A stretch of 64,000 nucleotides of DNA from Rhodothermales bacterium (GCA_965261255.1 CBDHCQ010000004.1:3150604-3214603), one strand, 5' to 3'. Numbered from the stretch's first letter, positions 6,742 through 60,815 are shown. The notes: generated by a model from the sequence alone, not told the origin. Numbers and translations: made by a program.

Positions 6742-6766
6742 CCTAGGATTTGGAGAGGTATCTATC

Positions 6767-6783
6767 CAAAATGCCACATTTTG
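6767..6783. promoter_or_regulatory. Palindrome CAAAATG-CCA-CATTTTG, 26 nt upstream of the A1 start
   Basis: Perfect 7-bp inverted repeat with a 3-nt spacer. Conserved upstream of A2; the same half-site occurs upstream of B2 and B3. Confidence 0.4.
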
Positions 6784-7442
6784 AGCAGAAATAGTTATCG
6801 AAGTAAAACCAGATCGTACCATCCGGATCCTGTTGAGCATAAATCTAACAATCCCGCTCACCATCATTGGTAACTTAGATTTGGTGAAGACTTTCGCCCG
6901 CTTCGTGCGGGCTGTTCGTCGTGGGGCCAATATAAGGCGATCCCAACTCAGGTCCGATTACGATCCGTGCAATCTGGGGCCCAAGGTGAATCGGATTGAT
7001 CCGATGCAGTGGAACCGGCTGGGCGTGGATAAAATCGGTCAACCAAGCAAGCTCTGCCGCGCTTTCACAATAAGCCCTTGACATTGTAGTGCTTGCCGGT
7101 CAGACTACCGGCTATGGTCCACAACAACCCATATTGGCAACGCTCCGATCATCGGTGTCCGACTTTTCCGCACTGCGTGACGAGCATCGCGACAAAGGCC
7201 ACAACGTGACCAGTCGCGCGGTGTGCGATCTGTCGTTGTAGGAATCGTGAACAGCTTCTGTGTAGGGGGCTGGGGAAACCGGGATCCCTGCCGCGAGATC
7301 AGACTGTTACGGACGAAACTCCGTGGCTATAGCCTACATGCCACCTCGCCACTCGATATCAACAAAATCAATGCCAGCTACCCAAATCCACCCGTGGCCC
7401 TAGGCCTTAGAAGTTTCTGTGACCCATCTTCCAGGTGCTACG

Positions 7443-8573
7443 TCAAAAATCGACCGAGTACACCACGACCAGATGCTCATCGGATTCATTACGCAGTCTA
7501 CCGTAAGCCAGTGCATTGGCGGTATCAATCACGTACAGTGTTAAGGTTCTTGGAAGCAAGACCTGACCGAGCAACCTGCCTTCAGAATCAAGCACTTGCC
7601 ACCGCGCTTCGCTGGCGGGGGCCTCAACGTAGTCTTTGATCCAGATATTATCCTGATCATCAATTACGAAGGTCCTATACGCAGGCTTGAACTCTGGGTA
7701 CATCTCGCGAGCTTCCCTGTCTAACCACGCGGGGAAATCACGTTTCAAGGGTACACGATCGTGGGGCCGCCGGATAGTGCGGACTGTATCACCGGCCAGT
7801 GATGTCACCAAGATGTCAATTTCCGTATTCAAACCCGAATAGAAAAGCTGACTGGTACTCAATCTGAACACCGAGTTAGGGGCAAACTCGATTTCCTCCA
7901 CGGTTGGACCGCCATCAGGTCCGAGACCAACATACAGACCTAAGTTCGGATGGCGAGCGAGTTCACGGATACGCGTACCCGCCCAAGACGTGAGAACGGC
8001 GTAACTGTGTCGGGGCTTCCCTACGTTATCGGGCAGTATCATCGTGTTGTACCGCATGATGGGGCCATGATCGGACACCCCTACAGCTGATGAGACGCTT
8101 CCCCAGTCTTCGTCGTACGGAAATCGAATCTGGCGCACATATGTTAAGTCTGTTGGGTCGTACACATGCATGCGGGGTTCGCGCCCACTCCTGCCTTCCA
8201 TAACATAGACTGTGTCGAATGGGCTCACATACACGCCACGCACTTCCTCATATTCTCCTGGACCCTCACCCTTCTCACCGACCGAACCGAGCCATTCTCC
8301 GTCCATTGAGAAAACAGCTACCGAAGGTGGTCGTCGGTCTGCAACTAGGATCCTATCCTTAGAATCCACAGTCAAGCCCACGATTTGACCGAACAGGTAG
8401 GCGTTTTCGTCCGTTTCCTCACCCACGCGAAGTATTTCGGTGAATGTTATTTCTGCCTCCTCTGCGCGAGGCTGCCCGACTAGAGTGCTACTGGGCAACA
8501 CCGTGATGAAGAAAACGGTCAGCGCCACTTGGATTATCCGCAGACGCTGGCACAAACCCTGACAGGTCGCCAT
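7443..8573 (-). CDS. Secreted beta-propeller-like protein, paralogue A2
   Basis: Same layout as A1. ATG 8573 gives MATCQGLCQRLRIIQVALTVFFITVLP... High identity to A1 and A3 over the full length. Confidence 0.8.
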   Translation of the reverse strand: MATCQGLCQRLRIIQVALTVFFITVLPSSTLVGQPRAEEAEITFTEILRVGEETDENAYLFGQIVGLTVDSKDRILVADRRPPSVAVFSMDGEWLGSVGEKGEGPGEYEEVRGVYVSPFDTVYVMEGRSGREPRMHVYDPTDLTYVRQIRFPYDEDWGSVSSAVGVSDHGPIMRYNTMILPDNVGKPRHSYAVLTSWAGTRIRELARHPNLGLYVGLGPDGGPTVEEIEFAPNSVFRLSTSQLFYSGLNTEIDILVTSLAGDTVRTIRRPHDRVPLKRDFPAWLDREAREMYPEFKPAYRTFVIDDQDNIWIKDYVEAPASEARWQVLDSEGRLLGQVLLPRTLTLYVIDTANALAYGRLRNESDEHLVVVYSVDF

Positions 8574-8598
8574 CCTAGCATTTGGAGAGGTGTCTATC

Positions 8599-8615
8599 CA
8601 AAATGCCACATTTTG
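8599..8615. promoter_or_regulatory. Palindrome CAAAATG-CCA-CATTTTG, 26 nt upstream of the A2 start
   Basis: Identical to the A1 site. Confidence 0.4.
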
Positions 8616-9273
8616 AGCAGGAATAGTTAACGCAGTAAAACCGGATCGTACCATCTGGGTCCTGTTGAGCATAAATCTCACAATCCCGTTCACCGTCATT
8701 GGTAACTTAGATTTAGTTACAACTTTCGTCCGCTCCGTGCGGGTTATTCGTCGTGTGGCCAATATAAGGCAATCCCAACTCAGGTCCGATTACGATTCAT
8801 GTAGACTGGGGCCCAGGGTGAATCGGATTGATCCGATGCAGTGGAACCGGTTGGGCGTGGATAAAATCGGTCAACCAAGCAAGCTCTGCCGTGCTACTAC
8901 AATCAGCCCTTAGCATTGTAATTCTTGCAGGTTAGTCTACGGGCTATGGAATCACAACAATCCATACTAGCAGCGCTCCGATCATCAATGTCTGCGCTGT
9001 CTGCACTGCTTGACGGGTATCGCGACAAAGGCTGCCACGCGACCGGTCGCGCGGTGTGCGATCTGTCGTTGTTGGAATCGTGAACAGCTTATGTGCGGGG
9101 GCCGGGAAACCCGGGTCCCTATCGCAATATCAGGCTGTCACGGACGAAACATCGTGGCTATAGCCCACAAGCCGCTTCGTCACTCGACATCTACGAAATC
9201 AAAGCCAGCTACCCAAATCCACCAGTGGTGCCGGGCCTTAGTAGTTTCTGTGGCCCATCTTCCTGGTGCTACG

Positions 9274-10539
9274 TCAAAAATCAACCGAGTACACCACGAC
9301 CATATACTCACCGGATTCACTACGCAGGGTACCGTAAGCGCGTGCGTTGGCGGTATCAATCACGTACAATCTCAGGGTTCTTGGAAGCAGAACCTGACCG
9401 ATCATCCTGCCTTCAGAATCAAGCACTTGCCACCGTGCTTCGCTGGCAGGGGCCTCAACGTAGTCTTTGATCCAGATATTATCCTGATCATCAATTACGA
9501 AATACCTATACGCAGGCTTGAACTCTGGGTACATCTCGCGAGCTTCTTTTTCTAACCACGCGGGGAAATTGCGTTTCAAGGGTACACGATCGTGGGGCCG
9601 CCGGATAGTGCGGACTGTATCACCTGCCAGTGATGTCACCAAGATGTCAATTTCCGTATTCCACCCCGAGTAGAGAAGCTGACTAGCACTCAATCCGAAC
9701 ATCGAGTTAGGGGCATACTCGGCTTCCCGCACGAATGGGCCACGATCAGGGTCGAAACCAACATAAACGTCTAAGTTCGGTAGGCGAGCGAGTTCGCGGA
9801 TACGCTCTCCCGCCCAAGACGTAAGAACGACGTAACTGTGCCGGGGCTCCCCTACGTTGTCGGATAGTACCATCGTACTGTACTGCATGATGGGGCCATG
9901 ATCGGAAACGCCTACGGCTGATATGGCGGCTCCCCAGTCGTCTTCGTTGTGTGGGAATCGAATCTGGCGCACAGGCGTGAAGTCTGTCGGGTCGTACACA
10001 TGTAAGATATTTTCCCTCCAATCCATAACGTAGACTGAGTCGGATGGGCCCACATCCACATCATTCACAGAGACATATTCTCCCGGACCCTCACCCACGC
10101 CACCGACAGAACCGAGCCATTCTCCGTCCAACGAGAAAACAGCAACCGAAGGTGGTCGGTGGTCTGCAATTAGGATTCTATCCTTAGAATCCACGGCCAA
10201 GTCCCCAATTTGACCGAATAGGTAGGAATTTTCGTCCGTGTCCTCACCCAGGCGAAGTATCTCGGTGAATGCTATTTCAGCCTCCACTGCACGAGGCTGC
10301 CCGACTAAAGTGCTACTGGGCAGTACCGTGATGAAGAAGACGATCAGCGCTACTTTGATTATCCGCAGACTGCTGGCACAAAAAAATACTAGTCGCCATT
10401 CTGGGAGTCGGGGAGCTTTTTCTGCACAATAGCACAGATTGAGCAGAAAACGAAAACGTGCATCGCTCTCCTCTGCACGAAACGATGTCGGGAGCGGACC
10501 AACCAGATTTCCTAACCTAAGCATTGAGTTCCATTGCAT
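9274..10539 (-). CDS. Beta-propeller-like paralogue A3; the canonical signal-peptide start is out of frame (possible pseudogene, or uses an upstream ATG)
   Basis: The family ATG (10397-10399) is +1 relative to the long ORF. There are 31 nt versus 30 nt between the ATG and CTGCGGATAATC, with a T7 run (A7 on plus, 10380-10386). The ORF stays open only via a non-homologous 47-codon extension. Confidence 0.55.
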   Translation of the reverse strand: MQWNSMLRLGNLVGPLPTSFRAEESDARFRFLLNLCYCAEKAPRLPEWRLVFFCASSLRIIKVALIVFFITVLPSSTLVGQPRAVEAEIAFTEILRLGEDTDENSYLFGQIGDLAVDSKDRILIADHRPPSVAVFSLDGEWLGSVGGVGEGPGEYVSVNDVDVGPSDSVYVMDWRENILHVYDPTDFTPVRQIRFPHNEDDWGAAISAVGVSDHGPIMQYSTMVLSDNVGEPRHSYVVLTSWAGERIRELARLPNLDVYVGFDPDRGPFVREAEYAPNSMFGLSASQLLYSGWNTEIDILVTSLAGDTVRTIRRPHDRVPLKRNFPAWLEKEAREMYPEFKPAYRYFVIDDQDNIWIKDYVEAPASEARWQVLDSEGRMIGQVLLPRTLRLYVIDTANARAYGTLRSESGEYMVVVYSVDF

Positions 10540-27400: not shown

Positions 27401-28594
27401 ATGGCCACACCCAATCAGGATCAAGGAAGCCTTGTGGTCGCGCTTGTCTTGCTCCTTAGGGCCTGCTCCCAGCAAGCACCATCCGAAACCGGGACCGTCG
27501 ACAACTCCAACGTGGAGACCGTAACCAGCATCCCCGCGAATTCGAAGGCGACTTGCACACTCAGTGAAGAACCCGTCTTGGTCATCGGCGATGACGAGAA
27601 AGATGACAGCCAATGGTTCTCTTGGATCCGAGGGATGGGACGTCTGTCAGATGGATCCGTCGCGGTGGTTGATCGCACGTCGGCTGAAGTTCGCATTTTC
27701 GACGCGTCGGGGCGTCACCTACGATCAATGGGCCAGCGCGGCGAAGGCCCCGGTGAGTTCACCGACCCCTTTAAACTATGGATCACGGCAGGCGACACGC
27801 TTTGGGTGGGAAACACCGGGGCTTGGAGCTACACTGTATTCACGGCCCGGGGCCAATTCGTCCGGAGGATCGTGCTCGATCCGGTGTATTCGAACACGTC
27901 AAGTGCTGGAGGCGTGCTCGAAAACGGGTACACTGTGAACGCCAGACAGGTAGGAACGCGCACCCCGGACTTTGACGTTCCAGACACGATGATAGTAGAG
28001 ATCCACGATTCCGATGGGAAGTTTATCGGCAACATCGCCCGGATTCCCCACTTAACCTATGGACACGTCAATGAAGCCCCCGGGGTCGGGTTCTACCCGC
28101 TCTTTGAAGCAAGCGCCGAAGTTGACGCGCTGGGGTCAACCATTGTGCTGGCACACGGTAGCAAACCTGAGGTACAGGTTCTGGACGATGAATCCAACTT
28201 ACAAATGATCGTCCGCTGGTCAGATCCAAACCGCGAGGTTACGCGTGCCGACATGCGCGCCTGGCGCGAGGATTACCGAGAGCGCCATAGTTCTTCTGAC
28301 TGGGATCAGTATGATGACGCCGTAATTAGCCCAGAGCGTCCAGTGGCCGACGTTTTCCCAGCTATGTCTAGTGTCAAGGTTGGTCGTGACGGCCGCATCT
28401 GGGTCCGCCAATACGACCGGCCCCGGGAAGATCGTGGATGGCTCGCCTTCGGAACTGACGGCAAATTCTTTTGTCACATGGCCCAGCCCCCCGGCGATGT
28501 TTGGGAATTCGGAGCCGACTACATGCTCCTGCTTCACGAGTCCGAACTTGGGGTTGAAACCGTTAGGATGCATCGCCTCACGTCACCTTCTTAG
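27401..28594 (+). CDS. Lipoprotein, beta-propeller-like family, paralogue B1 ('GEGPGEF' subfamily)
   Basis: Lipobox LLLRAC. 'VLVIGDDEKDDSQWF...DRTSAEVRIFDASGRHLRSMGQRGEGPGEF'. Alignable with A1-A3 along its length. Confidence 0.85.
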   Translation: MATPNQDQGSLVVALVLLLRACSQQAPSETGTVDNSNVETVTSIPANSKATCTLSEEPVLVIGDDEKDDSQWFSWIRGMGRLSDGSVAVVDRTSAEVRIFDASGRHLRSMGQRGEGPGEFTDPFKLWITAGDTLWVGNTGAWSYTVFTARGQFVRRIVLDPVYSNTSSAGGVLENGYTVNARQVGTRTPDFDVPDTMIVEIHDSDGKFIGNIARIPHLTYGHVNEAPGVGFYPLFEASAEVDALGSTIVLAHGSKPEVQVLDDESNLQMIVRWSDPNREVTRADMRAWREDYRERHSSSDWDQYDDAVISPERPVADVFPAMSSVKVGRDGRIWVRQYDRPREDRGWLAFGTDGKFFCHMAQPPGDVWEFGADYMLLLHESELGVETVRMHRLTSPS

Positions 28595-33037: not shown

Positions 33038-34261
33038 ATGATTACGCTTAATCAGTGTCTACATAGCCTTGTGGTCGCGCTTGCCTTGTTCCTTGGTGCC
33101 TGCTCCCGGCAAGTACCGTCCGAAACCTGGAATATTAACAGCTCCCGGCAAGCACTATCTGAACCCCTGACCATTGACAGCTCCAACGCGCAGATCGTAA
33201 CTAGCACCCCGGCAAGTTCGGAGGCGACATGCACATTCAGTGAAGAACCCGTCTTGGTCATCGGAGATGACGAGGAAGACGACAACCAATGGTTCTCTTA
33301 TATCTGGGGGACGGGACGTCTGTCAGATGGATCCATAGCGGTGGTTGATAACGACCTTTATGAAGTTCGTGTTTTCGACGCGTCGGGGCGTCACCTGCGA
33401 TCAATGGGCCAACGCGGCGAAGGCCCCGGTGAGTTCACCAATCCCACTTCCCTGTGGATCACGGCAGGTGACACGCTTTGGGTGGGCAACTACCGGCCTT
33501 GGAGCTACACTGTATTCACGGCCCAAGGCCAATTCGTGCGGAGGATCCTGCTTGATCCGGTGTTCCAAAACCGGTCAGAAGCTGGGGGCGTACTCGAAAA
33601 CGGGTACACCGTGAACGCCAAAGAGGTAAGGATAGGAATGCGCACCCCGGACTTTGGCGTTCCAGACACGATGATAGTGGAGATCCACGATCCCGACGGG
33701 AAACTTGTCGGCCACCTCGCCCGGATTCCCCACATAACCTATGGCACAGTACGTGAGGCCCCCGAGAACCTCTATTTGTTCCCGCTCTTTGAGGCAAACG
33801 CCGAAGTTGACGCGCTGGGATCAACCATCGTGCTGGCACACGGGAGCAAACCCGAGATACAGGTTCTGGACGATGAATTCAACTTACGGATGACCATCCG
33901 CTGGCCAGAACCGAACCGTGAGGTTACGCGCGCAGACATACGTGCTTGGCGCGAGGATTACCGAAAGCTCCGTAGCCCTGCTCGATACATGCTTAGCCGA
34001 GAACGTCCGGTTGCTGACGTTTTCCCGGTTATGTCCAGTGTCAAGATCGGTCGTGACGGCCGCATCTGGGTCCGCCAATACGACCGGCCCCGGGAAGACC
34101 GTGGGTGGCTTGCCTTTGGTGCTGACGGCAAATTCTTTTGTCACATGGCCCAGACCCCCGGCAGTGTTCGGGAATTCGGAGCCGACTATTTGCTCCTGCG
34201 TCACGAGCCCGAACTTGGGGTCCATACCGTACGGATGCATCGCCTCACGTCACCTTCTTAG
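33038..34261 (+). CDS. Lipoprotein, beta-propeller-like family, paralogue B3
   Basis: Lipobox LFLGAC. High identity to B1 and B2. Confidence 0.85.
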   Translation: MITLNQCLHSLVVALALFLGACSRQVPSETWNINSSRQALSEPLTIDSSNAQIVTSTPASSEATCTFSEEPVLVIGDDEEDDNQWFSYIWGTGRLSDGSIAVVDNDLYEVRVFDASGRHLRSMGQRGEGPGEFTNPTSLWITAGDTLWVGNYRPWSYTVFTAQGQFVRRILLDPVFQNRSEAGGVLENGYTVNAKEVRIGMRTPDFGVPDTMIVEIHDPDGKLVGHLARIPHITYGTVREAPENLYLFPLFEANAEVDALGSTIVLAHGSKPEIQVLDDEFNLRMTIRWPEPNREVTRADIRAWREDYRKLRSPARYMLSRERPVADVFPVMSSVKIGRDGRIWVRQYDRPREDRGWLAFGADGKFFCHMAQTPGSVREFGADYLLLRHEPELGVHTVRMHRLTSPS

Positions 34262-38104: not shown

Positions 38105-38635
38105 CTAATGAACCTTTGAGGGGCGGATCCTGTCGTACGTGGCGAAAGTGAATCCTTCATGTGGATGTTCTTTTACGAGCGCGAACTCTGTCCCTATGAG
38201 GTGCTCGTAAGGCGGAAAGAAAGTATCTCCTTCATAGGAGCGGTCAATGAGCGTTAGCTCAAGTCGATCTGCTATGGGAATCCCCTCTTCATAGACTCTG
38301 GCGCCGCCGGCAATAAACACCTGATCAGCAGATTCTACATCCTTCAACGCGGCCTCCAATGAAGCAAATGATTCAATGGATGGATGGATTTTTGTTTTGG
38401 GGTTGCTTGTCAATACAAGCATACGCCTATTCGGCAGCGGCCCACCAAAGTCACGTACGAGCCCTTCGCAGGTTAAGCGTCCCATGATCATCGGGAAACC
38501 ACTCGTCAGTCGCTTAAAGTGCCGCATATCTTCGGGGATATGCCAAGGGAGGCGCAGATTGCGACCGATACAGCGATTCTCACGTGCCAGTGCGGCAATG
38601 ACGATCACAAGAGGACGTCTTACATGTTTTCCCAA
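38105..38635 (-). CDS. folA: Dihydrofolate reductase
   Basis: 'VIVIAALARENRCIGRNLRLPWHIPEDMRHFKRLT...MGRLT'. An alternative GTG start at 38608 would remove the 16-nt overlap with the upstream gene. Confidence 0.9.
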   Translation of the reverse strand: MGKHVRRPLVIVIAALARENRCIGRNLRLPWHIPEDMRHFKRLTSGFPMIMGRLTCEGLVRDFGGPLPNRRMLVLTSNPKTKIHPSIESFASLEAALKDVESADQVFIAGGARVYEEGIPIADRLELTLIDRSYEGDTFFPPYEHLIGTEFALVKEHPHEGFTFATYDRIRPSKVH

Positions 38636-39645
38636 TACTCTTCTGGCATGTCTTCCGCCAGACTCAGGGCCCCTTCGGCACCACTGAACAGCGGATCTTC
38701 AATGGGTGTGATCGTGAAATGCCCATACTCCTCCAAGGCAGTAGCGAGGGCTTCAGTTATGCCACGAATTTGACTTCCACCGCCTGCTAAATAGATACTG
38801 TTCCGGATCCGCTCCTGGAGCATCGGTTCGTACGTACTCAGAAGATCAATGATTGTCTCTGCTATACCTGGTATCAAAGAATCACAGGCCCGGCAGATTT
38901 CCTTGGTGATGTCATGCAACTGAAATTTGCCGGCAATCGGCAGTTTGACCCTAACGGGTTCACTTGCTCCAGAAACAGAGGCGTGCTTCTCCTTCAATTC
39001 ACGCACCATAGTTTCACTTATAGGTGTGTTGACGAAGCGCTCCGACAGCAGGTCGTAAAGCTGCTGATCGATATGATCCCCCGCGGCGCGCATTGAGCGC
39101 TGATCCTCATCACTCGGCATCGTGCCATGCATGACACAGAAATCAATCGTGCCTGCACCAATGTCAACGATACAGGCGTTATTGAGAGCGCCGAGTCTAT
39201 ATGCCACTGCGAACGGTTCCGATACCAGCATCAGAGTGTCCGCCCATTCACCCACAGCATTGCGTATTGCAAGCTTATTGACCCGCAGAGCCTCAGCGGG
39301 CACGCCAACGGCAGCATAAATTTTCTGCCCATCCTCTGGTTCTGCCAGCGATATCAAATGCCGAATCAGTTCACGAACAGCCTTTTCGTCTTTGGCTGTT
39401 CCGTCCCTGATTACACCGTGCTCCAAAGGGCGAACCAAGTTGACTGAATTCCGATGCTCAATGGCATCCGTTCCAACGAGCACATCACGCTTGAGCAACT
39501 TGCGTGCGATAAAATCACGGGGCCAGCCGACATAGCTGTGAATCCACTTGCGCTTACCATTATCAGCAGCAATGGCACTTCGTGAAGTTCCCAGATCAAT
39601 ACCGACGCGCAGAATATTATTGGATGTTTCAGATTGATGCGACAT
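38620..39645 (-). CDS. MamK-like bacterial actin (actin-like ATPase)
   Basis: Co-linear with magnetosome MamK as recalled: 'GIDLGTS', 'YVGWPRD...LL.R..LVG.DA', 'VGVPA', 'VSEPFAVAY', 'IVDIGAGTIDFC', 'LAGGGSQIRG', C-terminal 'DPLFSGAEGALSLAEDMPEEYW'. Confidence 0.75.
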   Translation of the reverse strand: MSHQSETSNNILRVGIDLGTSRSAIAADNGKRKWIHSYVGWPRDFIARKLLKRDVLVGTDAIEHRNSVNLVRPLEHGVIRDGTAKDEKAVRELIRHLISLAEPEDGQKIYAAVGVPAEALRVNKLAIRNAVGEWADTLMLVSEPFAVAYRLGALNNACIVDIGAGTIDFCVMHGTMPSDEDQRSMRAAGDHIDQQLYDLLSERFVNTPISETMVRELKEKHASVSGASEPVRVKLPIAGKFQLHDITKEICRACDSLIPGIAETIIDLLSTYEPMLQERIRNSIYLAGGGSQIRGITEALATALEEYGHFTITPIEDPLFSGAEGALSLAEDMPEEYWENM

Positions 39646-39650
39646 ATAAA

Positions 39651-40649
39651 CTAATTAGCAAATGTTATAGAACTATCCTCTGTGGAAAGATAAGAGATAA
39701 TACCGGATTCAAGACCGATAGCCAACTGCTCTCGGTAAGCATCATCCAGCAAGTTTTGTTCTTCTTCCGGCATTGAAATTGCGGTTATTTCAGCAAGTAC
39801 TGCCGGCACTTTCGTGTTCAGGAGCACTGTAAAAGGCCCAGATCTCGTCCCCCAATCATGAATCCCGGGATTGATTTCGCGCATAGTTGAAATCATCGCA
39901 TTCTGAATGTGCGTGGCCAATCGGCGACTGTCTTCATCTCGCACGGTTTGCCCTAGTGCTTCAAGACTGTTTTGCCATTGGGCGACACTATAGCCAGCAT
40001 TGAAATTCTCCCGAAGAGCCAAAGCCTCCGCGCGAGCATCTCCGCGCGGACTGAAATAATAAGTCTCAATAAAAGCCACTGTGTCAACAGGAACTGAATT
40101 GACATGAATTGACACAAAAAGGTCTGCCTCGTGAGCCCGTGCATCTTCGACCCTTTTCCGGAGGCTCACGCTAACATCCTGTCGTCGTGTGAGAACCACA
40201 TTATAGCCTCGAGACCTCAGTCGCCTTGCGAGACGCAAGGCAACATCAAGTGTAACGGTTTTTTCGTGCAGGCCAACCGGTCCAGAGGCACCGGGATCAT
40301 GACCGCCATGCCCCGGATCAAGTACGATCGTTCTCACGTCAAGACCATAAACACGGGATAAGGGTATGTCTGTTGTGCTCTCGGACGCAACAAATTCATC
40401 CTGAGATGCAAGTATGCGCTGGTCAGGAGATGTAAGTAGTTCAACAGAGCTTACTGGTTCAGCCGTACCGTCTTCTTCTATGCCACCGACCATCAGGGCA
40501 ATCACAATGACCAGAAGCGAAATACCCATAGACCACCATACTGTTGTTCTCCTTTGTTTTGAGACAGTATGCCCAACGAGTTTCTGATTATCCTCAAAAA
40601 CACCTCGAAGTAACGCCTGCCGTTGACTCCCGGGGTTACGTGATCTCAT
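39651..40649 (-). CDS. Membrane-anchored N-acetylmuramoyl-L-alanine amidase (Amidase_3, AmiC-like)
   Basis: N-terminal TM. 'VLDPGHGGHDPGA...EKTVTLDVALRLARRL...VLTR...DLFVSIHVNS'. Confidence 0.85.
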   Translation of the reverse strand: MRSRNPGSQRQALLRGVFEDNQKLVGHTVSKQRRTTVWWSMGISLLVIVIALMVGGIEEDGTAEPVSSVELLTSPDQRILASQDEFVASESTTDIPLSRVYGLDVRTIVLDPGHGGHDPGASGPVGLHEKTVTLDVALRLARRLRSRGYNVVLTRRQDVSVSLRKRVEDARAHEADLFVSIHVNSVPVDTVAFIETYYFSPRGDARAEALALRENFNAGYSVAQWQNSLEALGQTVRDEDSRRLATHIQNAMISTMREINPGIHDWGTRSGPFTVLLNTKVPAVLAEITAISMPEEEQNLLDDAYREQLAIGLESGIISYLSTEDSSITFAN

Positions 40650-40676
40650 CGTTGGTCAATTTTCGCAATGACAGAA

Positions 40677-41570
40677 TTAAACAGCCACAGGAGCTTTGAT
40701 AGCCGGATGACACTTATAGTCCCTGAGTGCAAAGTCGGCGTACTCATAATCAAGTAATGTTGCCGGCTTCCTTAAGATATGCAAAGTTGGCAGTGGATAA
40801 GGAGTACGCGTAAGTTGCTGCCTTACTTGATCAAGATGATTCAGATAAATGTGTGCATCTCCGATAGTGTAAACTAAATCCCCTGGTTCAAGGCCTGCCT
40901 GCTCCGCTATAAGATGGGTTAAGAGCGCGTACTGAGCAATATTGAACGGAGCACCCAGGAAGAGATCGTTTGATCGAATGTAAAGCTGACAGGACAGTCG
41001 GGTGTCCGAGGCGGAAAGCTGGAAGAACATATGACAGGGAGGAAGTGCCATCCGATCTATTTCTCCTGCATTCCATGCGCTCACAATATGACGTCGACTC
41101 CAAGGTTTTCGTTGAAGGGAGTCCATGACAGATGCTATCTGGTCTACACCGGAGAATGAACGCCACTGCTTGCCATAAACAGGACCCAAATCCCCCCATT
41201 TTTCGGCAAACCCTTCTTCGTTGCGGATGCGTTCTTCAAACTCTTTGAGACGCACTGACCATTCGTCAGAGTCCGACGGTGGAACCGGGAGCTTACGATA
41301 CTCGAGATAATACTTCAGCGGCCATGCGGTCCAGATTGAGATTCCCTGATCGACCAGCGGCTTGATATTCGTAGAACCAGACAGGAACCAGAGCAGTTCG
41401 CACGCCAACCCCCGAAACCAAACACGTTTAGTTGTACAAATCGGAAACCCCTCCTTCAGTGGGAATCGCATCTGATATCCAAAAACACTGACCGTTCCAG
41501 TTCCTGTGCGATCACTGCGCTCATGCCCGTTCGTCATGACATGCCGCAACAAGTCCAAATAGAGATGCAT
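40677..41570 (-). CDS. thyA: Thymidylate synthase
   Basis: 'DRTGTGT.SVFG.QMRF', 'LPPCH.FFQ', 'QRS.D.FLG.PFNIA.YALL' pattern throughout. Confidence 0.95.
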
Positions 41571-42315
41571 CCGCAGAAGCTAATAAGAATAATCAACTTG
41601 CGTCGGTCAAAAATGATCTTTTTCGTGGCCGTAAAATCCAGAAGCCGTTCACAATGATTGCGACCAAATTATAACCGATTATACCAAAAATGAAGTTCCG
41701 TTGACACGGTTTTCAACCAGTTGACAATTAGAGGTGCGTGACCGAGAATACGGTATACAGTCACAGGATAATGCTTCCAGCTTCAGCACTATATCGGCAG
41801 AGTCCAGACGTTTTGCGTGTTGCCCAAATAGCAGACTATTGCAACGACAAGAGAATCGTTATCCACCCGTCAGCAGGCACCTCCATTCTGAATCACCTAG
41901 AAATCAATTTTGCTTAGGGCCAGCTCCATCCTAAACAACGGCACAAAAACAATATTTGCTCGCTTGAGCTCACACTGTCCTGCATCCGGTTAATAACTAT
42001 CCCGGATCATACCGGGCAACAATTAGCGTCCATGGCCTCACGTTGATGTCCAGCATTGACGGTCTCACCAAAAGGGGTAATCTGCTCAGCAATTGAATTC
42101 TCAAATCTAGGTTTATGAGACAAGAGGATTACCAACCCTGATCAAGTACAACACCTGCCGGTGTACCACGAACGTACACCGGACCCCAAGAGCTACGGAT
42201 TATGTAATTTAGGTTCAGAGTTCAGAAAGCTGGACGGCAATAAATCACTTTACTGCGTACCACTAGTCCTAATAAGAATTCTTAATCTGATCACGGCATT
42301 ATAATCGGCTGAAGT

Positions 42316-42688: not shown

Positions 42689-43927
42689 ATGACGGACTCC
42701 AAGTCTCCAAAAATCCTGCTGGTTGGCACCTTGGACACCAAGGGGGAGGAATATGCTTACGCACGGGATATTATTCGGTCGAGGGGCCTGCATCCCATCC
42801 TGATGGACGTGGGAGTAATGGGGCAGCCGCAATACGAGCCGGATATTTCAGCAGGCGAGGTCGCCAAGGCTGGTGGCGAAGATATTTTAGCTCTGAGAGA
42901 AAGGGGTAGTCGCAGCTATGCCTTGGATTTTTTGACACGCGGTGCTGTGAATCTGGCGAGGAATATGTCCTCTCAGTTGGCAGGCGTTTTGGCACTCGGT
43001 GGTTCTGGAGGAACCGCAGTAGGGACGGCAGTCATGCGGGCGCTCCCAGTTGGACTTCCCAAAGTGATGGTATCTACACTTGCTTCCGGTGATGTGGCGC
43101 CCTATATGGGCGAGAGCGATATCGCTATGATGTACTCCGTCGCGGATATAGCGGGATTGAATCGGATAAGCAGGGTGATCATCAAGAATGCTGCTGATGC
43201 AGTTTGTGGTATGGCCGCGCATAAAATCCCAGAGCGTGTTGATGAGCGACCCCTGATTGCGGCGACGATGTTTGGCGTGACAACTCCGTGTGTCACGCGA
43301 CTGCGTGAGCGTCTGGAGAAGTCAGGGTTTGAGGTAGTGGTTTTTCATGCGACAGGTAGTGGCGGCCGGGCAATGGAAAAACTTATTGCGGATGGATTTT
43401 TTGAAGGCGTTGCGGATGTCACTACCACTGAATGGTGCGACGAGGTGGTAGGCGGTGTGTTGAGTGCTGGTCCCCGACGACTGGAAGCGGCAATTATCGC
43501 TGGCACACCCCAGGTGGTTTCCTGCGGAGCACTGGATATGGTAAATTACTGGGCCCTTGAAACTGTGCCTGCAGCGTTCAGGGAGCGAACACTGCATCCC
43601 CACAATGCTAACGTTACTCTGATGCGGACCAGTCCAGATGAATGTGTTAAGATTGGAAAGGAAATTGGAATTAGACTCAGCCGCGCACGGGCTCCGGTAA
43701 CGCTGATGTTACCGCTCAGGGGAGTCAGTATGCTGGATGCACCAGGAGAGATTTTCTTCGCTCCCGAATCCAATAAAGCGCTTTTTGCATCACTTCATGC
43801 AAACTGTAAATCCTCTGTGACAATCAAGGAATATGATTTCCATATTAACGACCCTGAGTTTGCGGATGCAATCTCAGACGAACTAATCCACAATCTGCAA
43901 TGGAAAAAATCGGCAAGTGCACTGTAA
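42689..43927 (+). CDS. Tm-1-like ATP-binding protein (UPF0261 family)
   Basis: 'KILLVGTLDTKGEEYAYARDII...VMDVGV', ~410 aa, typical UPF0261 layout. Confidence 0.8.
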   Translation: MTDSKSPKILLVGTLDTKGEEYAYARDIIRSRGLHPILMDVGVMGQPQYEPDISAGEVAKAGGEDILALRERGSRSYALDFLTRGAVNLARNMSSQLAGVLALGGSGGTAVGTAVMRALPVGLPKVMVSTLASGDVAPYMGESDIAMMYSVADIAGLNRISRVIIKNAADAVCGMAAHKIPERVDERPLIAATMFGVTTPCVTRLRERLEKSGFEVVVFHATGSGGRAMEKLIADGFFEGVADVTTTEWCDEVVGGVLSAGPRRLEAAIIAGTPQVVSCGALDMVNYWALETVPAAFRERTLHPHNANVTLMRTSPDECVKIGKEIGIRLSRARAPVTLMLPLRGVSMLDAPGEIFFAPESNKALFASLHANCKSSVTIKEYDFHINDPEFADAISDELIHNLQWKKSASAL

Positions 43928-44604: not shown

Positions 44605-45663
44605 ATGCGTAATCATATCATGTTAATGGTTGTTGCTCTGATTGGGATAGGGTGCAATTCAGAGGAGTCTGAGATTCCCGTGGTACAGCCGCAAATGGTG
44701 CCGTTTAGTGAGTTGTTTCAGCCGGCTGACACCATTAGACTGGATGCGTCAGTGCTCGTGGCTCATTACACTTTCATTGATGTTGACGAAGCCGGAAATT
44801 TACTTGTCACTGACGAAGTGAGTCGAATCACGCATTTATTTTCCGCAACAGGAGTGCACATGATGTCATACTCCGCTCCCGATTGTGTCCCCGACGAAGC
44901 TGATTTTGAGCCAGTGAGTTCACGCTTTATCAGCGGCGGGCGTATTGTGGTGATGTCCCGTGCAAGGGGAGGTGCAGTATTTGACCGGAACGGTGATTGC
45001 TTGGTTGGGACCAGGATGTGGAATGATCTCTCAAAATCCATTTGTACACAGGGGGATTCAATTTTCCTGCTTAAGGGGATTCCTGGAGGAAAACCGTCAA
45101 TAAGCGTGTACGACTCTGCATTAGAACATTTGACGGATATTCCGATCCGCTCACCTCGGCTCATCATGTTGAACCGGACCACGGGTGGACTGCCGGGGAG
45201 ATCTCTTGAGTGCTTTGACGATGGTCCGCATTATCTCTATATCGAGGACATGGATTCGTGGCCAGTGCGGGTAGACAGCAGCCGGATTCGACATCGACCG
45301 GACTTCTTCCGGCGGCGGCAAGATGATGTGTCTGGAATTCCGCCTATAGAGCAAATACTTGAGTATCCTTCGGCCATCGCCGTATTTGCGCTTGATAAAT
45401 CCACGCGAATGGTAGCGTTCATTGGATTAGACCAGAAGTGGGCAAGATGGAGCGAAGAATCTGGTCCCATGATTGGGCTAAGCGTAGCCAGCAACGAGAA
45501 CCGATTTCCTGGTCGCAGCACGATTTCGCATATGTTTCCAATTTCCGCTGGTAACGGCGATTTTTACGCTGAAGGGGAGCACGAGCCGCTACCTGACGGC
45601 GAAGTTGGGAATCCCATCTTGATTAGATACAGGTTCATTCCGCCTCAGTCCGATGAAGAATAA
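44605..45663 (+). CDS. Lipoprotein; possibly a distant beta-propeller relative of the A/B family
   Basis: Lipobox IGIGC. Blade-like 'FIDVDEAGNLLVTDEVSRITHLFSATG' but no GEGPGE motif. Family link is weak. Confidence 0.7.
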   Translation: MRNHIMLMVVALIGIGCNSEESEIPVVQPQMVPFSELFQPADTIRLDASVLVAHYTFIDVDEAGNLLVTDEVSRITHLFSATGVHMMSYSAPDCVPDEADFEPVSSRFISGGRIVVMSRARGGAVFDRNGDCLVGTRMWNDLSKSICTQGDSIFLLKGIPGGKPSISVYDSALEHLTDIPIRSPRLIMLNRTTGGLPGRSLECFDDGPHYLYIEDMDSWPVRVDSSRIRHRPDFFRRRQDDVSGIPPIEQILEYPSAIAVFALDKSTRMVAFIGLDQKWARWSEESGPMIGLSVASNENRFPGRSTISHMFPISAGNGDFYAEGEHEPLPDGEVGNPILIRYRFIPPQSDEE

Positions 45664-45741
45664 GCAGTGGCAACTAGTGGTGTGCTTCGTATTGTCGTTC
45701 TTGGCTACGCTAGCATTCCTCGTTGCCGCTCAAAGAATGTT

Positions 45742-46204
45742 CCGACGACTTGAAGCGGCAATTATTGCAGGCACGGCCCAGGTGGTTTCCTGTGGAGCAC
45801 TGGATATGGTTAATTGCTGGGCCCTTGAAACTGTGCCTGCAGCATTCAGGGAGCGAACACTGCATCCCCACAATGCTAACGTTACTCTGATGCGGACCAG
45901 TCCAGATGAATGCGCTAAGATTGGAAAGGAAATAGGAACTAGACTCAGCAGTGCACGGGCTCCGGTAACGCTGATGATACCACTCAGAGGAGTCAGTATG
46001 CTGGAGGCACCAGGAGAGATTTTCTTCGCGCCCGAATCCAATAAAGCACTTTTTGCATTACTCCATGCAAACTGTACTTCCTCTGGGACAGTCAAGGATT
46101 ATGATCTCCATATCAACGACCCCGAGTTTGCGAATGCAATCTCGGACGAACTAATTCACAATCTGCAGTGGAAGAATCGGCAAGTGCACTGTAACCCAAC
46201 CTAA
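45742..46204 (+). pseudogene. Duplicated 3' fragment of the Tm-1-like gene, fused in the track ORF (45653-46204) to a novel hydrophobic N-terminus
   Basis: 'RRLEAAIIAGTAQVVSCGALDMVNCWALETVPAAFRERTLHPHNANVTLMRTSPDE...' duplicates residues ~262-405 of 42689-43927. The N-terminal ~260 aa are absent. Confidence 0.75.
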
Positions 46205-47195: not shown

Positions 47196-47633
47196 CTATC
47201 CGTCGTGGCCGTTGAATAGGTATTTGGAGAGCACACGAAGCGGAGTGTACATGGTACCAAACGCGGTACCAAGCATGGCAATTAGGACTCTATAGTCAAC
47301 GTCTATTCCTGGACTTTCTAACCCACTCTGATAAATGAGTACTGCCGTAAACCCCAACCATCCTAATGCCACCAGGCCTGAAATCCATGCAAAGGGAAGC
47401 CTGTATTTGTTTTTCTGATGTTCTTTCTTGGCTAATTCCGCTTCCCTGTCTGCCACAGCCCTTTCCTTCCTTAGCTGTATTTCGCCCCACTCAGATTCCT
47501 CATAATCGGAATCTTCGTCCTCGGCCACGTCCCAATTAATGTCCTCCCAGCGAAGGTCGCGCAGCAGGTCGCGTATACGCTGCGCTTCCTGACCGGGCGG
47601 GCCGACTGGCCCCATACCCGGCTTACTCTCCAT
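47196..47633 (-). CDS. Small protein with an acidic/charged N-terminal half and two C-terminal TM helices; candidate toxin/effector partner of the Panacea-domain protein
   Basis: 'DINWDVAEDEDSDYEESEWGE' acidic tract, then TM1 LPFAWISGLVALGWLGFTAVLIY and TM2 YRVLIAMLGTAFGTMYTPL. ATG 47633 overlaps the upstream stop by 11 nt and is preceded by GGCGAGGG. Alternative starts at 47675 and 47615. Confidence 0.6.
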   Translation of the reverse strand: MESKPGMGPVGPPGQEAQRIRDLLRDLRWEDINWDVAEDEDSDYEESEWGEIQLRKERAVADREAELAKKEHQKNKYRLPFAWISGLVALGWLGFTAVLIYQSGLESPGIDVDYRVLIAMLGTAFGTMYTPLRVLSKYLFNGHDG

Positions 47634-48081
47634 CCCTCGCCGCTCCGACCTTCTTTCGCTTCCTATACTCCTCAAGTATATCCTTTTCAGGAATCACGAC
47701 TCCCCTAGCACCAGTATAATTCTTCGCCCATGCGCCCCCTGTCCAATGCGTAATCCTTATCAGCTTTGAGGCCGATACCAACCCTAGTTCGCTGTAAACA
47801 GCTTCCAAAGTTGTCTTTTCAGTGCCAGGCTGCAACGGGTGTCTATTAAAACCTATACGGGTTATAGTGCTTGATCCGTAAACGCGAACTGCCTTGTATA
47901 GCACCGGGTGCACGGGACCGAATTCCCAAGCTTCAAAGTGCCCCCGAACAAGTGGCTTGTCGAAGTTTCCTAGGTGAACCATGTGAGCAAGATAAAGCAG
48001 CTTTTGGAGCTCAATCTGTGTAAGCGTCCAGTCAGATTCCTTGCACAAATGATTCGCAGCGTCAAGCACTGGTACAGCCAT
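47623..48081 (-). CDS. Panacea-domain (DUF4065 / SocA-GepA-like) protein; candidate antitoxin
   Basis: 'LTQIELQKLLYLAHMVHLGNFDKPLVRGHFEAWEFGPVHPVLYKAVRVYG...SASKLIRITHWTGGAW' follows the DUF4065 pattern (LQKLLYY...G.PLF...FEAW..GPV.P.VY...YG...L...TH...PW). Confidence 0.8.
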   Translation of the reverse strand: MAVPVLDAANHLCKESDWTLTQIELQKLLYLAHMVHLGNFDKPLVRGHFEAWEFGPVHPVLYKAVRVYGSSTITRIGFNRHPLQPGTEKTTLEAVYSELGLVSASKLIRITHWTGGAWAKNYTGARGVVIPEKDILEEYRKRKKVGAARDGE

Positions 48082-58304: not shown

Positions 58305-58832
58305 TTGGACCAACTGGAACAAGAGGTACGCAGAATTGAGGCCGATTTAGCGGCGCTTGCCAGTGAAGCGCCCGTCAAGGTCTTGATGGCCTTCCGGGGC
58401 ATTGGCTTGGTAAGCGCGTCAACGCTGATCTTTGAGTTAGGCGATATCCGGCGTTTTGCACATCCGCGTCAGCTGATGGCGTATCTGGGACTCGTGCCAA
58501 GCGAGCACAGTTCGGGGAATCGCACAAAACGGGGTGGCATCACCAAAACCGGCAATGGCCATGTGCGAAAAACTGTCATCTCCGCCGCATGGAAGTATAC
58601 CAGTCCCCCGCGATGCAGTCGGGTGCTAAAAGAACGGCAACAAGCAGTGTCCGCGGAGGTCGTCGGCATAACCTGGAAAGCCCAACGCCGACTGTACAAA
58701 CGCTTTCACAAACTGCGTCAGACGAAACTACCATGTGTCGCCAACACCGCGCTTGCGCGCGAACTGGTCGGCTTTTTGTGGGCAGCGCTGCACTTGGATA
58801 ATCCATTGATCACTCCCAACGTGCGTGCCTGA
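58305..58832 (+). mobile_element. IS110-family transposase, C-terminal half only (truncated remnant)
   Basis: 'FRGIGLVSASTLIFELGDIRRFAHPRQLMAYLGLVPSEHSSG...GITKTGNGHVRK' = IS116/IS110/IS902 C-terminal domain. The N-terminal DEDD domain is missing. Confidence 0.8.
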
Positions 58833-59189: not shown

Positions 59190-60815
59190 CCCTTATGGTG
59201 AACTCATATCCAAGCTTGGGTGAGCCGCTTTTTGTGCTTCCCAGCAACCGTTCAATCCAGATCAAATCGGCTGGCAGCAGCCGTACGAGCTCGGATGCGG
59301 GAGCGTTGTTAATGCGGTAGGTCATTGATCGAACGGGGATCGTCAAATTTTTGGAGGATCGGTTGTACGATCCCCGGGATCCGGATCGTATCAAATACCC
59401 GTTGGCGCAGTTGCTTATGCAATGGCTACTCCATTTGATTCAGGGCTGGGGTGGATTGTGGGCGGAGCAAGTGCGTATGGATCCATCTCTTAGCGCAGCG
59501 AGCAATCCGAGACGTGGGGATGGGGTAGTCGATTCGGGGGGATTAGCGTCGCAGTCCACGCTGTCGCGCCTATCATGTCTGCTTGGCAGAAAGGAGAATC
59601 TCGCCGTCCTGCGGGCCACGGTTCTGAGACTGGCGACGGAGCATCTGCTGGTCAGCAACGGGGGCAAGCGTCGCAAGGAAGTGGTCGTTGACGTGGATGC
59701 GATGCCGCTGGAGGCGCACGGCAAGCAGTCAGGCAGCAAGTATAACGGATACTACAAGCGTACGGTTTTTCTGCCCTTGTTTGCTTCGTGTGCAGAGACG
59801 GGGGATGTGCTTGGGGCAGAGGCGCGTCCGGGCACGCAGCGGGAAGTCACCGACTGCGAGGACTTTATTATTTCCATTGCGAAGGGGTGCGCAATCACCT
59901 TGCCGATCGCGTCATTGTTCAACTGGATGCGGGCTTTAACGGTAAGGAGCTCTATACTCGCCTGGAAGCAGAAGCGGTTTATTATCTGATGCGTCTTCGC
60001 AAAAACGCGGTGCTGGACGAGATGGCGGCGCCGTATCTGAGCGATCGTTCGTCTGCGCAGACGGAATACTTTGAATTGTCGTATCAAGCGCAGTCTTGGG
60101 CGCGTGCCCGCCGGGTGATTCTGGTGGTGAAGCCCCGTCCGGGGGAACTGTTTAACGATCATCACTTTTTGATCACGAATCTGGGCGAGGAGTTGTACAC
60201 GGGGCAGGAGCTGGCCCTGCTGTACAGTCGGCGCGGCAAGGCAGAGATGCATCAGGGGTAGATGAAGGCCGCCTGTGAGTTGTCGCTTCCGTCCTCGCCC
60301 CGTCCCAAGTCGCATTACCGTCAGGTTCCGATTGTGCGCGAGGAAGCGCCGGAGGCCGAAGCAAGTGCGCGGGAGCCTGAGATTCGCGCAGAGAATGAAG
60401 CCTATCTTCTCATCCAGCTACTGGTCTACCAGTTGATCCACAGTGCTCGGAGTCTCTATCACAGTCCACCCCCACCGCTGGAACCTGAGCCGGATGAAGA
60501 ACCCCCGATGCAGCGCACGGCGGATCTGTGTGAAGCAGCGCCATCTGGAACCCCGTTGGAAGAATCCCTGGATCTCGTCCCGGAGACCGCGATGGATTCG
60601 TCTGCCAGTGTGCAGGAAAGCACTGCCCTGATCGCGGAAGAAGCGCCGCACCTGCACATTCACTCCTTTAGACTTCAACTGCTGAAGGTCGGGCTGCGCT
60701 GGCGCGCCATGGTCGCTATGTGACGTATTATATCGCCGCGTCCGCGATGCAGGCGTGGCAGCGTTTCTGGAGCCACTTTCAGCAGTTGCGCTGGTACACG
60801 GTGCCTGACTTCTGA
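59190..60815 (+). mobile_element. IS1380-family transposase pseudogene (in-frame TAG at 59318-59320 and 60259-60261, frameshifts near 59880 and 60700)
   Basis: Pieces in different frames: 'SSDAGALLMR*VIDRTGI', 'VVVDVDAMPLEAHGKQSGSKYNGYYKR', 'VIVQLDAGFNGKELY', 'HHFLITNL', 'LLYSRRGKAEMHQG*', 'FRLQLLKV...'. Together these are co-linear with IS1380 transposases. Confidence 0.7.

Follow-up and report, generated by a model that had tools for sequence, protein, structure and literature searches.

A MamK-like actin gene paired with the gene of a membrane-anchored cell-wall amidase in Rhodothermales and other phyla: a candidate actin-guided peptidoglycan hydrolase

Introduction

To our knowledge, the bacterial actins with assigned cellular roles belong to a handful of families, namely MreB, FtsA, the ParM-like proteins and MamK; relatives of MamK have been noted in non-magnetic bacteria, and we know of no function assigned to them. 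In the septal loop of Escherichia coli, FtsA contacts the tail of the bitopic FtsN, and the denuded glycan left by AmiA/B/C is recognised by SPOR domains. MreBH governs where LytE acts in Bacillus subtilis, and MreB itself binds the cytoplasmic part of the bitopic RodZ (PDB 2wus). For the bactofilin BacA, the binding site is the cytoplasmic N-tail of LmdC, a bitopic M23 endopeptidase encoded next to it (PMC10945521). On the MamK side, BeeR is a three-stranded tubular actin of the non-magnetotactic Verrucomicrobiota with a solved structure and no assigned function (PDB 8r2n; PMC11929497), and a MamK-like protein of Saltatorellota forms filaments when expressed heterologously (10.1101/817700). 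Here we analyse a gene pair encoding a bitopic N-acetylmuramoyl-L-alanine amidase and a MamK-like actin, located on the minus strand of a 64,000-nucleotide stretch of a Rhodothermales bacterium genome (GCA_965261255.1, CBDHCQ010000004.1:3150604-3214603; hereafter the window).

A preliminary description of the window had proposed that a filament-forming protein and the amidase might constitute a cell-wall remodelling pair, a proposal to which the comparisons below lend support through the actin's own clade, an adjacency universal within it and a conserved motif in the amidase tail. In the literature covered, open-access PMC and bioRxiv, no paper was found that connects a MamK-like actin to an amidase, and none with both 'MamK' and 'N-acetylmuramoyl-L-alanine amidase'. 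The pair suggests that cells may direct wall cleavage from the cytoplasm by a route not described before.

Conservation of the amidase-actin gene pair

The pair comprises the following elements (window coordinates; aa, amino acids; AF2, AlphaFold; pLDDT, predicted local distance difference test):
40649-39651, minus strand: bitopic N-acetylmuramoyl-L-alanine amidase, 332 aa (PF01520, E 2e-45, 155 bits)
40634-40578, minus strand: conserved tail helix of the amidase, residues 6-24, a candidate actin-docking peptide with the core LLRGVFEDN at residues 13-21 (40613-40587)
40535-40479, minus strand: single transmembrane helix of the amidase, residues 39-57 (best 19-aa hydropathy window 2.31; AF2 helix 39-54)
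40337-39663, minus strand: periplasmic Amidase_3 catalytic domain, residues 105-329 (pLDDT >90)
39645-38620, minus strand: MamK-like actin ATPase of the amidase-linked clade, 341 aa (NCBIfam MamK 393.1 bits)

The pairing was followed in 52 genome loci, all of Rhodothermales and 50 of them with upstream DNA (including Salinibacteraceae, Rubricoccaceae and the cultured Roseithermus sacchariphilus), and in 80 metagenome loci retrieved with a profile of the clade, 63 of which had at least 700 nt upstream. The amidase gene lay directly upstream of the actin gene on the same strand in all 50 of the former, and upstream on the same strand in all 63 of the latter. Two further actin-centred look-ups outside Rhodothermales (54% and 49% identity) each showed an Amidase_3 gene preceding the actin, and all six amidase-centred look-ups, including Nitrospirota, Syntrophobacteraceae and two with diverged tail motifs, showed the actin immediately downstream. 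The two genes were separated by -56 to +43 nt in all but two of the 50 genome loci and typically overlapped by 14 nt in the metagenome loci. The flanking genes differed each time, and the amidase-centred loci sat among unrelated housekeeping neighbours. Chance cannot explain the adjacency, since it recurs in ~120 loci across phyla with changing flanks; because the loci were sampled by similarity and include near-duplicates, the claim made here is that the amidase link is universal within the clade, not that it arose in ~120 independent events. Conservation thus extends well past this genome, to which the preliminary description had allowed that the adjacency might be confined, and reaches several phyla, including Nitrospirota and Thermodesulfobacteriota. 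The clade profile matched 7,017 sequence clusters at E <= 1e-20, a number in which adjacent MamK-like groups may be counted as well.

No amidase gene lay next to three MamK-like actins from outside the clade (43-45% identity), two of which belong to Gemmatimonadota and Verrucomicrobiota by their source names. At the first of two loci without an amidase (L059:6001-7697, Gemmatimonadota-type), a 178-aa unannotated open reading frame (ORF) lies downstream of the MamK-like actin, and at the second (L058:32-2050) a 287-aa unannotated ORF lies upstream of it. Both neighbours may be clade-specific partners of other MamK-like actins.

The amidase and its cytoplasmic tail

The amidase is an N-in bitopic protein with a cytoplasmic tail, not an exported soluble periplasmic enzyme: its N-terminus is placed in the cytoplasm on account of the 8 K/R versus 2 D/E residues of the N-tail and the acidic flank after the transmembrane helix. 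In the AF2 model of the whole protein (pLDDT 83), the tail helix at 6-24 and the transmembrane helix at 39-54 are followed by a low-confidence linker, which is variable and spans ~40-120 aa among homologs. Within this otherwise disordered linker a short periplasmic helix was predicted at residues 75-86 (window 40392-40427; pLDDT ~84), and a partly conserved 'SPEQ.[IV]..S' (~residues 74-82) marks its N-terminal edge in the closer Rhodothermales orthologs.

Beyond the catalytic domain, the amidases differ from one another in sequence as well as in length, and the sole strongly conserved element is the tail motif, with the consensus [RK]xx[ILMV]L[RQK][GAE]VYE[DE]N[LRQ][RK][ILM] over 189 distinct instances. 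Of the 120 best amidase homologs, 100 carried it, and in six-frame translations of the window and the 52 genome loci it occurred only at amidase N-termini. The stretch is predicted to be helical (pLDDT ~83) and is weakly amphipathic, with a hydrophobic moment (muH) of 0.22-0.46 and a negative mean hydrophobicity. A role as amphipathic membrane anchor was considered and is not favoured, given the low moment and the genuine transmembrane helix alongside. The motif is tandem-duplicated in two lineages (L037:4849-4953; L056:6825-7991, the latter from Rhodothermaceae bacterium RA, CP020382), one example reading EILRAVYEENRRI then QVLRGVYETNRAM; a duplicated motif could recruit two actin subunits per amidase.

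When a periplasmic enzyme has a linear motif conserved in its cytoplasmic part, this calls for a cytoplasmic reader, and the actin is the likely one because it is the only cytoplasmic protein invariably encoded with the amidase. The preliminary description had pointed to the cytoplasmic tail as the amidase's point of contact, and the motif lends this specific support, nothing else beyond the catalytic domain being strongly conserved. We lean towards a reading in which the actin forms a cytoplasmic polymer that docks on the tail helix of the amidase and controls where peptidoglycan is stripped. Its steps would be as follows: (i) the amidase is a single-pass protein of the inner membrane, with its catalytic domain in the periplasm and an N-tail of ~38 residues in the cytoplasm; (ii) the actin would polymerise on ATP beneath the membrane; (iii) it would bind the tail helix, ILRGVYE[DE]NLRI, which is preceded by basic residues; (iv) docking would concentrate the amidase or set its place, and might also gate an autoinhibited active site; (v) the filament would decide where stem peptides leave the peptidoglycan; and (vi) in many lineages other than Rhodothermales, a SPOR protein described below could read out the amidase product or feed back on it. 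The process served is most likely daughter-cell separation or septal remodelling, and shape control is possible.

The closest solved relative of the amidase is E. coli AmiA (8c2o; 103 bits, 36% identity). The AF2 model superposes on AmiA with a TM-score of 0.87 (AmiA-normalised) and a root-mean-square deviation (rmsd) of 2.4 A, with AmiC and AmiB next. The equivalog cut-offs were missed for AmiA (113 vs 400 bits), AmiB (82 vs 532) and AmiC (86 vs 700). The Zn ligands and catalytic Glu (H114, E129, H182 and E287) were invariant across 61 diverse amidase homologs, which suggests that the enzyme is catalytically competent. This bears on another use of the same architecture, in which the amidase domain would mainly grip peptidoglycan and fix the actin filament to the wall, leaving the filament to position cytoplasmic cargo. 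A bitopic protein would indeed couple a filament to the wall, the SPOR partners also bind the wall, and MamK, the closest characterised relative, is a cargo-positioning filament (PMC11929497). However, the invariant catalytic residues speak for retained enzymatic activity, and no conserved cargo or adaptor gene lies beside the pair, the flanks being unrelated in every lineage, so that we consider such an anchoring role rather improbable.

The catalytic domain carries an AmiA-type regulatory insert at ~198-245, which aligns through AmiA 8c2o and includes predicted helices at 205-214 and 222-231. The amidase therefore has the regulatory helix insert of the cell-division Amidase_3 type, and it may be autoinhibited. 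Enzymes of the AmiA/B/C type need activation, and the FtsEX ATPase works on amidases through EnvC. By analogy, the actin, maybe as a monomer or short oligomer, might relieve the autoinhibition in an ATP-dependent manner through the tail and transmembrane helix, a control over when rather than where the enzyme cuts. The retained AmiA/B/C-type insert is in keeping with such a switch, as is the structure of AmiB bound to the EnvC LytM domain (PDB 8c0j), whereas a single transmembrane helix followed by a long, variable, low-confidence linker (~40-120 aa) makes a poor allosteric conduit. Evidence from the actin, given in the next section, bears on the same point, and overall we find a purely temporal switch unlikely.

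The actin

Residues 7-340 of the actin aligned without gaps to residues 7-340 of M. magneticum MamK (chains 5ljw, 5jyg and 5ljv; 247 bits); the two proteins are of equal length and ~38% identical. The co-linearity with magnetosome MamK noticed in the preliminary description, including the C-terminal DP.F.G..GAL.LAE..P..YW, is borne out by this alignment. Among structures in the PDB, MamK scored 247 bits, BeeR 149 and MreB 50 (T. maritima MreB 1jce). Against the curated NCBIfam models, the window actin reached 393.1 bits for MamK (NF040964), 7 below the cut-off of 400, and 199 bits against 530 for BeeR (NF053558). Some orthologs of the same clade do pass the MamK cut-off, as the name 'MamK family actin-like protein' that NCBI gives them shows. 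From 59 homologs, AF2 produced a model with a mean pLDDT of 91 and only ~7-10 disordered N-terminal residues, whereas BeeR is marked by a disordered domain of ~35 aa. By fold, the model comes closest to 5ljv, the filament subunit of MamK (TM-score 0.91/0.96, rmsd 1.6 A); BeeR (0.85) and MreB (~0.78) score lower. Within the amidase-linked clade, E143 and D161 are invariant, and we take these residues to be required for ATPase activity in MamK. At 19 positions, conserved residues of the linked actins set them apart from other MamK-like proteins (e.g. Y38, F45, F169, M172 and H173); by their conservation pattern, these are candidate binding determinants. The actin itself lacks a membrane anchor.

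In NCBI and JGI, numerous orthologs go under the label 'rod shape-determining protein', and the window actin passes the Pfam MreB_Mbl model (79 vs 27 bits), which might suggest a redundant MreB-type rod-shape protein whose place next to an amidase has no mechanistic meaning. The Pfam library has no MamK-specific model, and the curated MreB models tell otherwise: the window actin scored 81.2 bits against a cut-off of 293 (PRK13927) and 63.2 against 366 (TIGR00904), and in the PDB comparison MreB stood at 50 bits against 247 for MamK. In addition, no mreC or mreD lies beside the pair, and an adjacency over ~120 loci goes beyond chance. An MreB-type protein is thus very improbable here, and many clade entries labelled 'rod shape-determining protein MreB' are probably mislabelled. 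The preliminary description had seen no match to MreB, FtsA or ParM signatures; this stands for the curated MreB and FtsA models (FtsA TIGR01174, 27 vs 176 bits), but not for Pfam MreB_Mbl.

As for the temporal switch, residue 278 of the actin (window 38812-38814) is Glu, at the site of a polymerisation-blocking MamK mutation, which would suit an actin acting as a monomer or short oligomer. On the other hand, the actin model best matches the filament conformation of MamK, and the related non-magnetotactic MamK-like protein of Saltatorellota forms filaments in heterologous expression (10.1101/817700), both of which speak against such a switch.

Many MamK-like actins form the C-terminal domain of proteins of 700-1232 aa (P0125, P0132, P0136, P0137, P0140, P0143, P0147, P0161 and P0174). 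No gene-fusion link to amidases was found among MamK-like proteins of 500-1232 aa, as the N-terminal extensions of the ten scanned contained no Pfam domain; P0174 (768 aa), which was outside these ten, bears the source annotation 'Magnetosome protein MamK'. P0391 (455 aa), the top profile match, was discarded as a fusion, being an assembly artefact with an internal duplication.

Phylogeny of the actin

A neighbour-joining tree on Kimura distances (107 sequences, 334 columns, 200 bootstraps) placed all 33 verified amidase-linked actins in one clade, which was monophyletic in 167/200 bootstraps without two long-branch sequences and in 197/200 when one basal member was also left out (the value with both included is weighed below). 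MamK 5ljw grouped with the MamK-like protein of P. magneticum and with a sequence that bears the annotation 'Magnetosome protein MamK', apart from the linked clade, and BeeR formed a separate clade with 0.93 bootstrap support. No grouping of the linked actins with magnetosome MamK proteins was seen (84-98% support for the separate clade once unstable taxa are removed; the MamKs of deep-branching magnetotactic bacteria are unlabelled in the tree). A position within MreB or another characterised clade, which the preliminary description had named as the outcome that would tell against its idea, was not found: within the MamK-like superfamily, the actin belongs to a separate clade with good support.

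The similarity to MamK is high, and Nitrospirota and Thermodesulfobacteriota, to which the pair extends, have magnetotactic members (PMC10653835), which would accord with a true magnetosome MamK or with the relic of a lost magnetosome gene cluster. Yet Pfam scans of the 54 window ORFs found no magnetosome signature domain (Cation_efflux, LemA, trypsin/PDZ-type), as had been stated for the window beforehand, and no such domain was seen in any annotated related locus; a cluster of mamA/B/E/I/M/O/P/Q was likewise absent from both. The partner gene is always the amidase, and the clade stands apart from the labelled magnetosome MamKs. The chance that the actin belongs, or once belonged, to a magnetosome appears close to nil. 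Mad28, a second actin of deep-branching magnetotactic bacteria, was also considered and set aside; its gene lies close to magnetosome genes, and it shares only 15-17% identity with MamK (PMC10653835).

A third gene outside Rhodothermales

A third gene follows the actin in 26 of the 57 metagenome loci with enough downstream DNA (e.g. L093:5231-6460 and L098:5125-6513), and also in the Nitrospirota locus L063:9055-10338 and in L066:9008-9979. Its product consists of a receiver domain, a transmembrane helix and a C-terminal SPOR domain. In 33/33 sequences the phospho-acceptor Asp of the receiver is replaced by K, N, R, E or M, so that the domain is a pseudo-receiver, more likely an interaction module than a phosphorylation switch. 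A search for a receiver-SPOR gene found none in the window or the Rhodothermales loci.

SPOR domains bind denuded glycan, which is the product of amidases. The SPOR gene strengthens the link to amidase chemistry and recalls the FtsA-FtsN-amidase loop of E. coli. A more far-reaching idea, which we regard as doubtful, is that amidase, actin and, in loci that have it, the pseudo-receiver-SPOR protein form a self-organising trans-envelope machine, in which the cytoplasmic filament writes a pattern of denuded glycan and the SPOR protein reads it, with the wall role being the ancestral housekeeping task of the MamK family and the magnetosome cytoskeleton recruited later.

Gene setting in the window

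In the window, the pair is flanked by two genes of nucleotide metabolism, preceded by a promoter-like sequence:
41678-41707, minus strand: sigma-70-like promoter match upstream of thyA (GTGTCA-18-TATAAT, 10/12, extended TG; weak evidence)
41570-40677, minus strand: thyA, thymidylate synthase (PF00303, E 1.5e-107; TIGR03284, 390 bits), first gene of the apparent operon
38608-38105, minus strand: folA, dihydrofolate reductase (PF00186, E 3e-41), with the preferred GTG start; alternative TTG start at 38635

Re-reading of the four ORFs and their gaps returned the order thyA-amidase-actin-folA on the minus strand, at the coordinates originally assigned. As read from the sequence, the spacing is 27 nt between thyA and the amidase and 5 nt between the amidase and the actin, and the actin-folA junction is a 16-nt overlap with the TTG start at 38635 or an 11-nt gap with the GTG at 38608. 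The GTG fits better: counted from the TTG, residue 11 is the first that the Pfam DHFR model matches, and it corresponds to profile position 3. Promoter-like sites numbered 9, with 5.9 expected from shuffles, and terminator-like sites within the four genes showed no excess (5 vs 4.1 in shuffles). The G+C content is uniform across the locus region, and the actin gene is 100% identical to a copy in the metagenome-assembled genome (MAG) JAJEDR010000016.

The flank pair thyA/folA occurs only in the closer Rhodothermales relatives and is missing from ~1/3 of the genome loci. Membership of thyA and folA in the system was rejected, as neither gene occurs in the distant Rhodothermales loci or in the annotated loci outside Rhodothermales. 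The conserved unit is the gene pair of amidase and actin without them, and the thyA/folA setting looks incidental, a lineage-specific accident of location. As for the view in the preliminary description that the pair uses a nucleotide-metabolism operon for its expression, this setting, confined to one Rhodothermales subclade, is probably incidental. The same description had suggested examining co-occurrence across FCB genomes: the pair proved to be conserved, with a distribution much wider than FCB, but its thyA/folA context belongs to one lineage.

Several other features of the window were recorded. No mreB turned up in the Pfam scans of 54 ORFs. A 183-aa ORF at 45653-46204 is 90% identical to the C-terminal 145 residues of a UPF0261 protein (42689-43927) 1.7 kb upstream; it stems from a recent partial duplication, and its hydrophobic N-terminus is new. 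The window also encodes five paralogs of the DUF5128 six-bladed beta-propeller type (5614-6930, 7443-8762, 9274-10539, 27401-28594 and 33038-34261) and a 955-aa leucine-rich-repeat protein with a subtilase fragment (20-2887). Together they make up an expanded repertoire of repeat proteins such as is reported for host-associated bacteria, and several near-identical MAG names look sponge-derived. The G+C content dips to 0.468 at 56-58 kb, transposase fragments lie at 58305-58832 (IS110 family) and 59351-59989 (DDE_Tnp_1_4), and an ORF with a SocA/Panacea antitoxin domain lies at 47623-48081.

Weight of the evidence and significance

Several points weigh against a filament that docks on the amidase tail. 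We infer tail-actin binding, polymerisation, co-transcription and the cellular process from what was observed of gene order, conservation, domains, catalytic residues, topology, fold and clade link. Glu278 sits where the engineered A278D gives a non-polymerising M. magneticum MamK, according to the PDB title of 5ljw; the position varies freely across the family (E/D/V/M/L/I), and Glu278 is therefore not taken as evidence against polymerisation. Co-transcription of the four genes is plausible, judging from their spacing and from weak consensus scans. The locus counts, drawn by similarity to the query and with some near-duplicates among them, overstate the number of independent events. The tree is a neighbour-joining rather than a maximum-likelihood one, and monophyly of the linked clade fell to 74/200 bootstraps with the two long-branch sequences included. 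The MamKs of deep-branching magnetotactic bacteria are sometimes only 20-30% identical to Magnetospirillum MamK (mBio 2023 survey, PMC10653835); being unlabelled and as divergent as this, they cannot be placed relative to the linked clade by the tree.

With tail docking as the preferred reading, a very large group of MamK-related proteins gains a specific, testable role and a candidate contact peptide. Cultured hosts exist (e.g. Roseithermus sacchariphilus, for which transcriptomes are available, PMC7409140), which makes experiments feasible. If the reading is true, it would add a new mode of control for AmiA-type amidases and a clue to the origin of the magnetosome cytoskeleton.

Comparison with known systems

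With MamK (5ljv, 5ljw and 5jyg), the window actin has in common its length, an ungapped alignment, the C-terminal signature, E143/D161 and the predicted fold; it differs in lying outside a magnetosome cluster, in its invariant amidase partner and in forming its own clade. BeeR and the window actin are both members of MamK-related families of non-magnetotactic bacteria. BeeR scores 149 bits against the window protein and 206 against the clade profile, and its disordered N-terminal domain is absent from the window actin.

MreB-RodZ and MreBH-LytE involve a different actin family; moreover, RodZ is no enzyme, and LytE is a secreted endopeptidase without an anchor or a conserved adjacency. The septal loop of FtsA, FtsN, AmiA/B/C and SPOR resembles the present case in that the amidase is AmiA-like and the gene directly after the actin is that of a bitopic SPOR protein in about half of the loci outside Rhodothermales. 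In contrast to that loop, the actin here is of the MamK type, the amidase itself carries both the anchor and the tail, a pseudo-receiver stands in the SPOR protein in place of the tail of FtsN, and the Rhodothermales loci lack a SPOR gene.

Two features of BacA-LmdC were found here: adjacency of a polymer-type (here actin) gene and a bitopic peptidoglycan hydrolase gene across phyla, in ~120 loci, and a conserved motif in the cytoplasmic N-tail of the hydrolase. The likeness extends to the cross-phylum distribution and to the succession of tail motif, transmembrane helix, linker and catalytic domain. The differences lie in the parts used: BacA is a nucleotide-independent bactofilin, whereas the actin is predicted to be ATP-dependent, and LmdC is a DD-endopeptidase with a beta-hairpin tail motif, whereas the hydrolase of the present pair is an amidase with a predicted helix. 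If true, tail docking would make the amidase-actin pair an actin-based counterpart of the bactofilin-LmdC principle.

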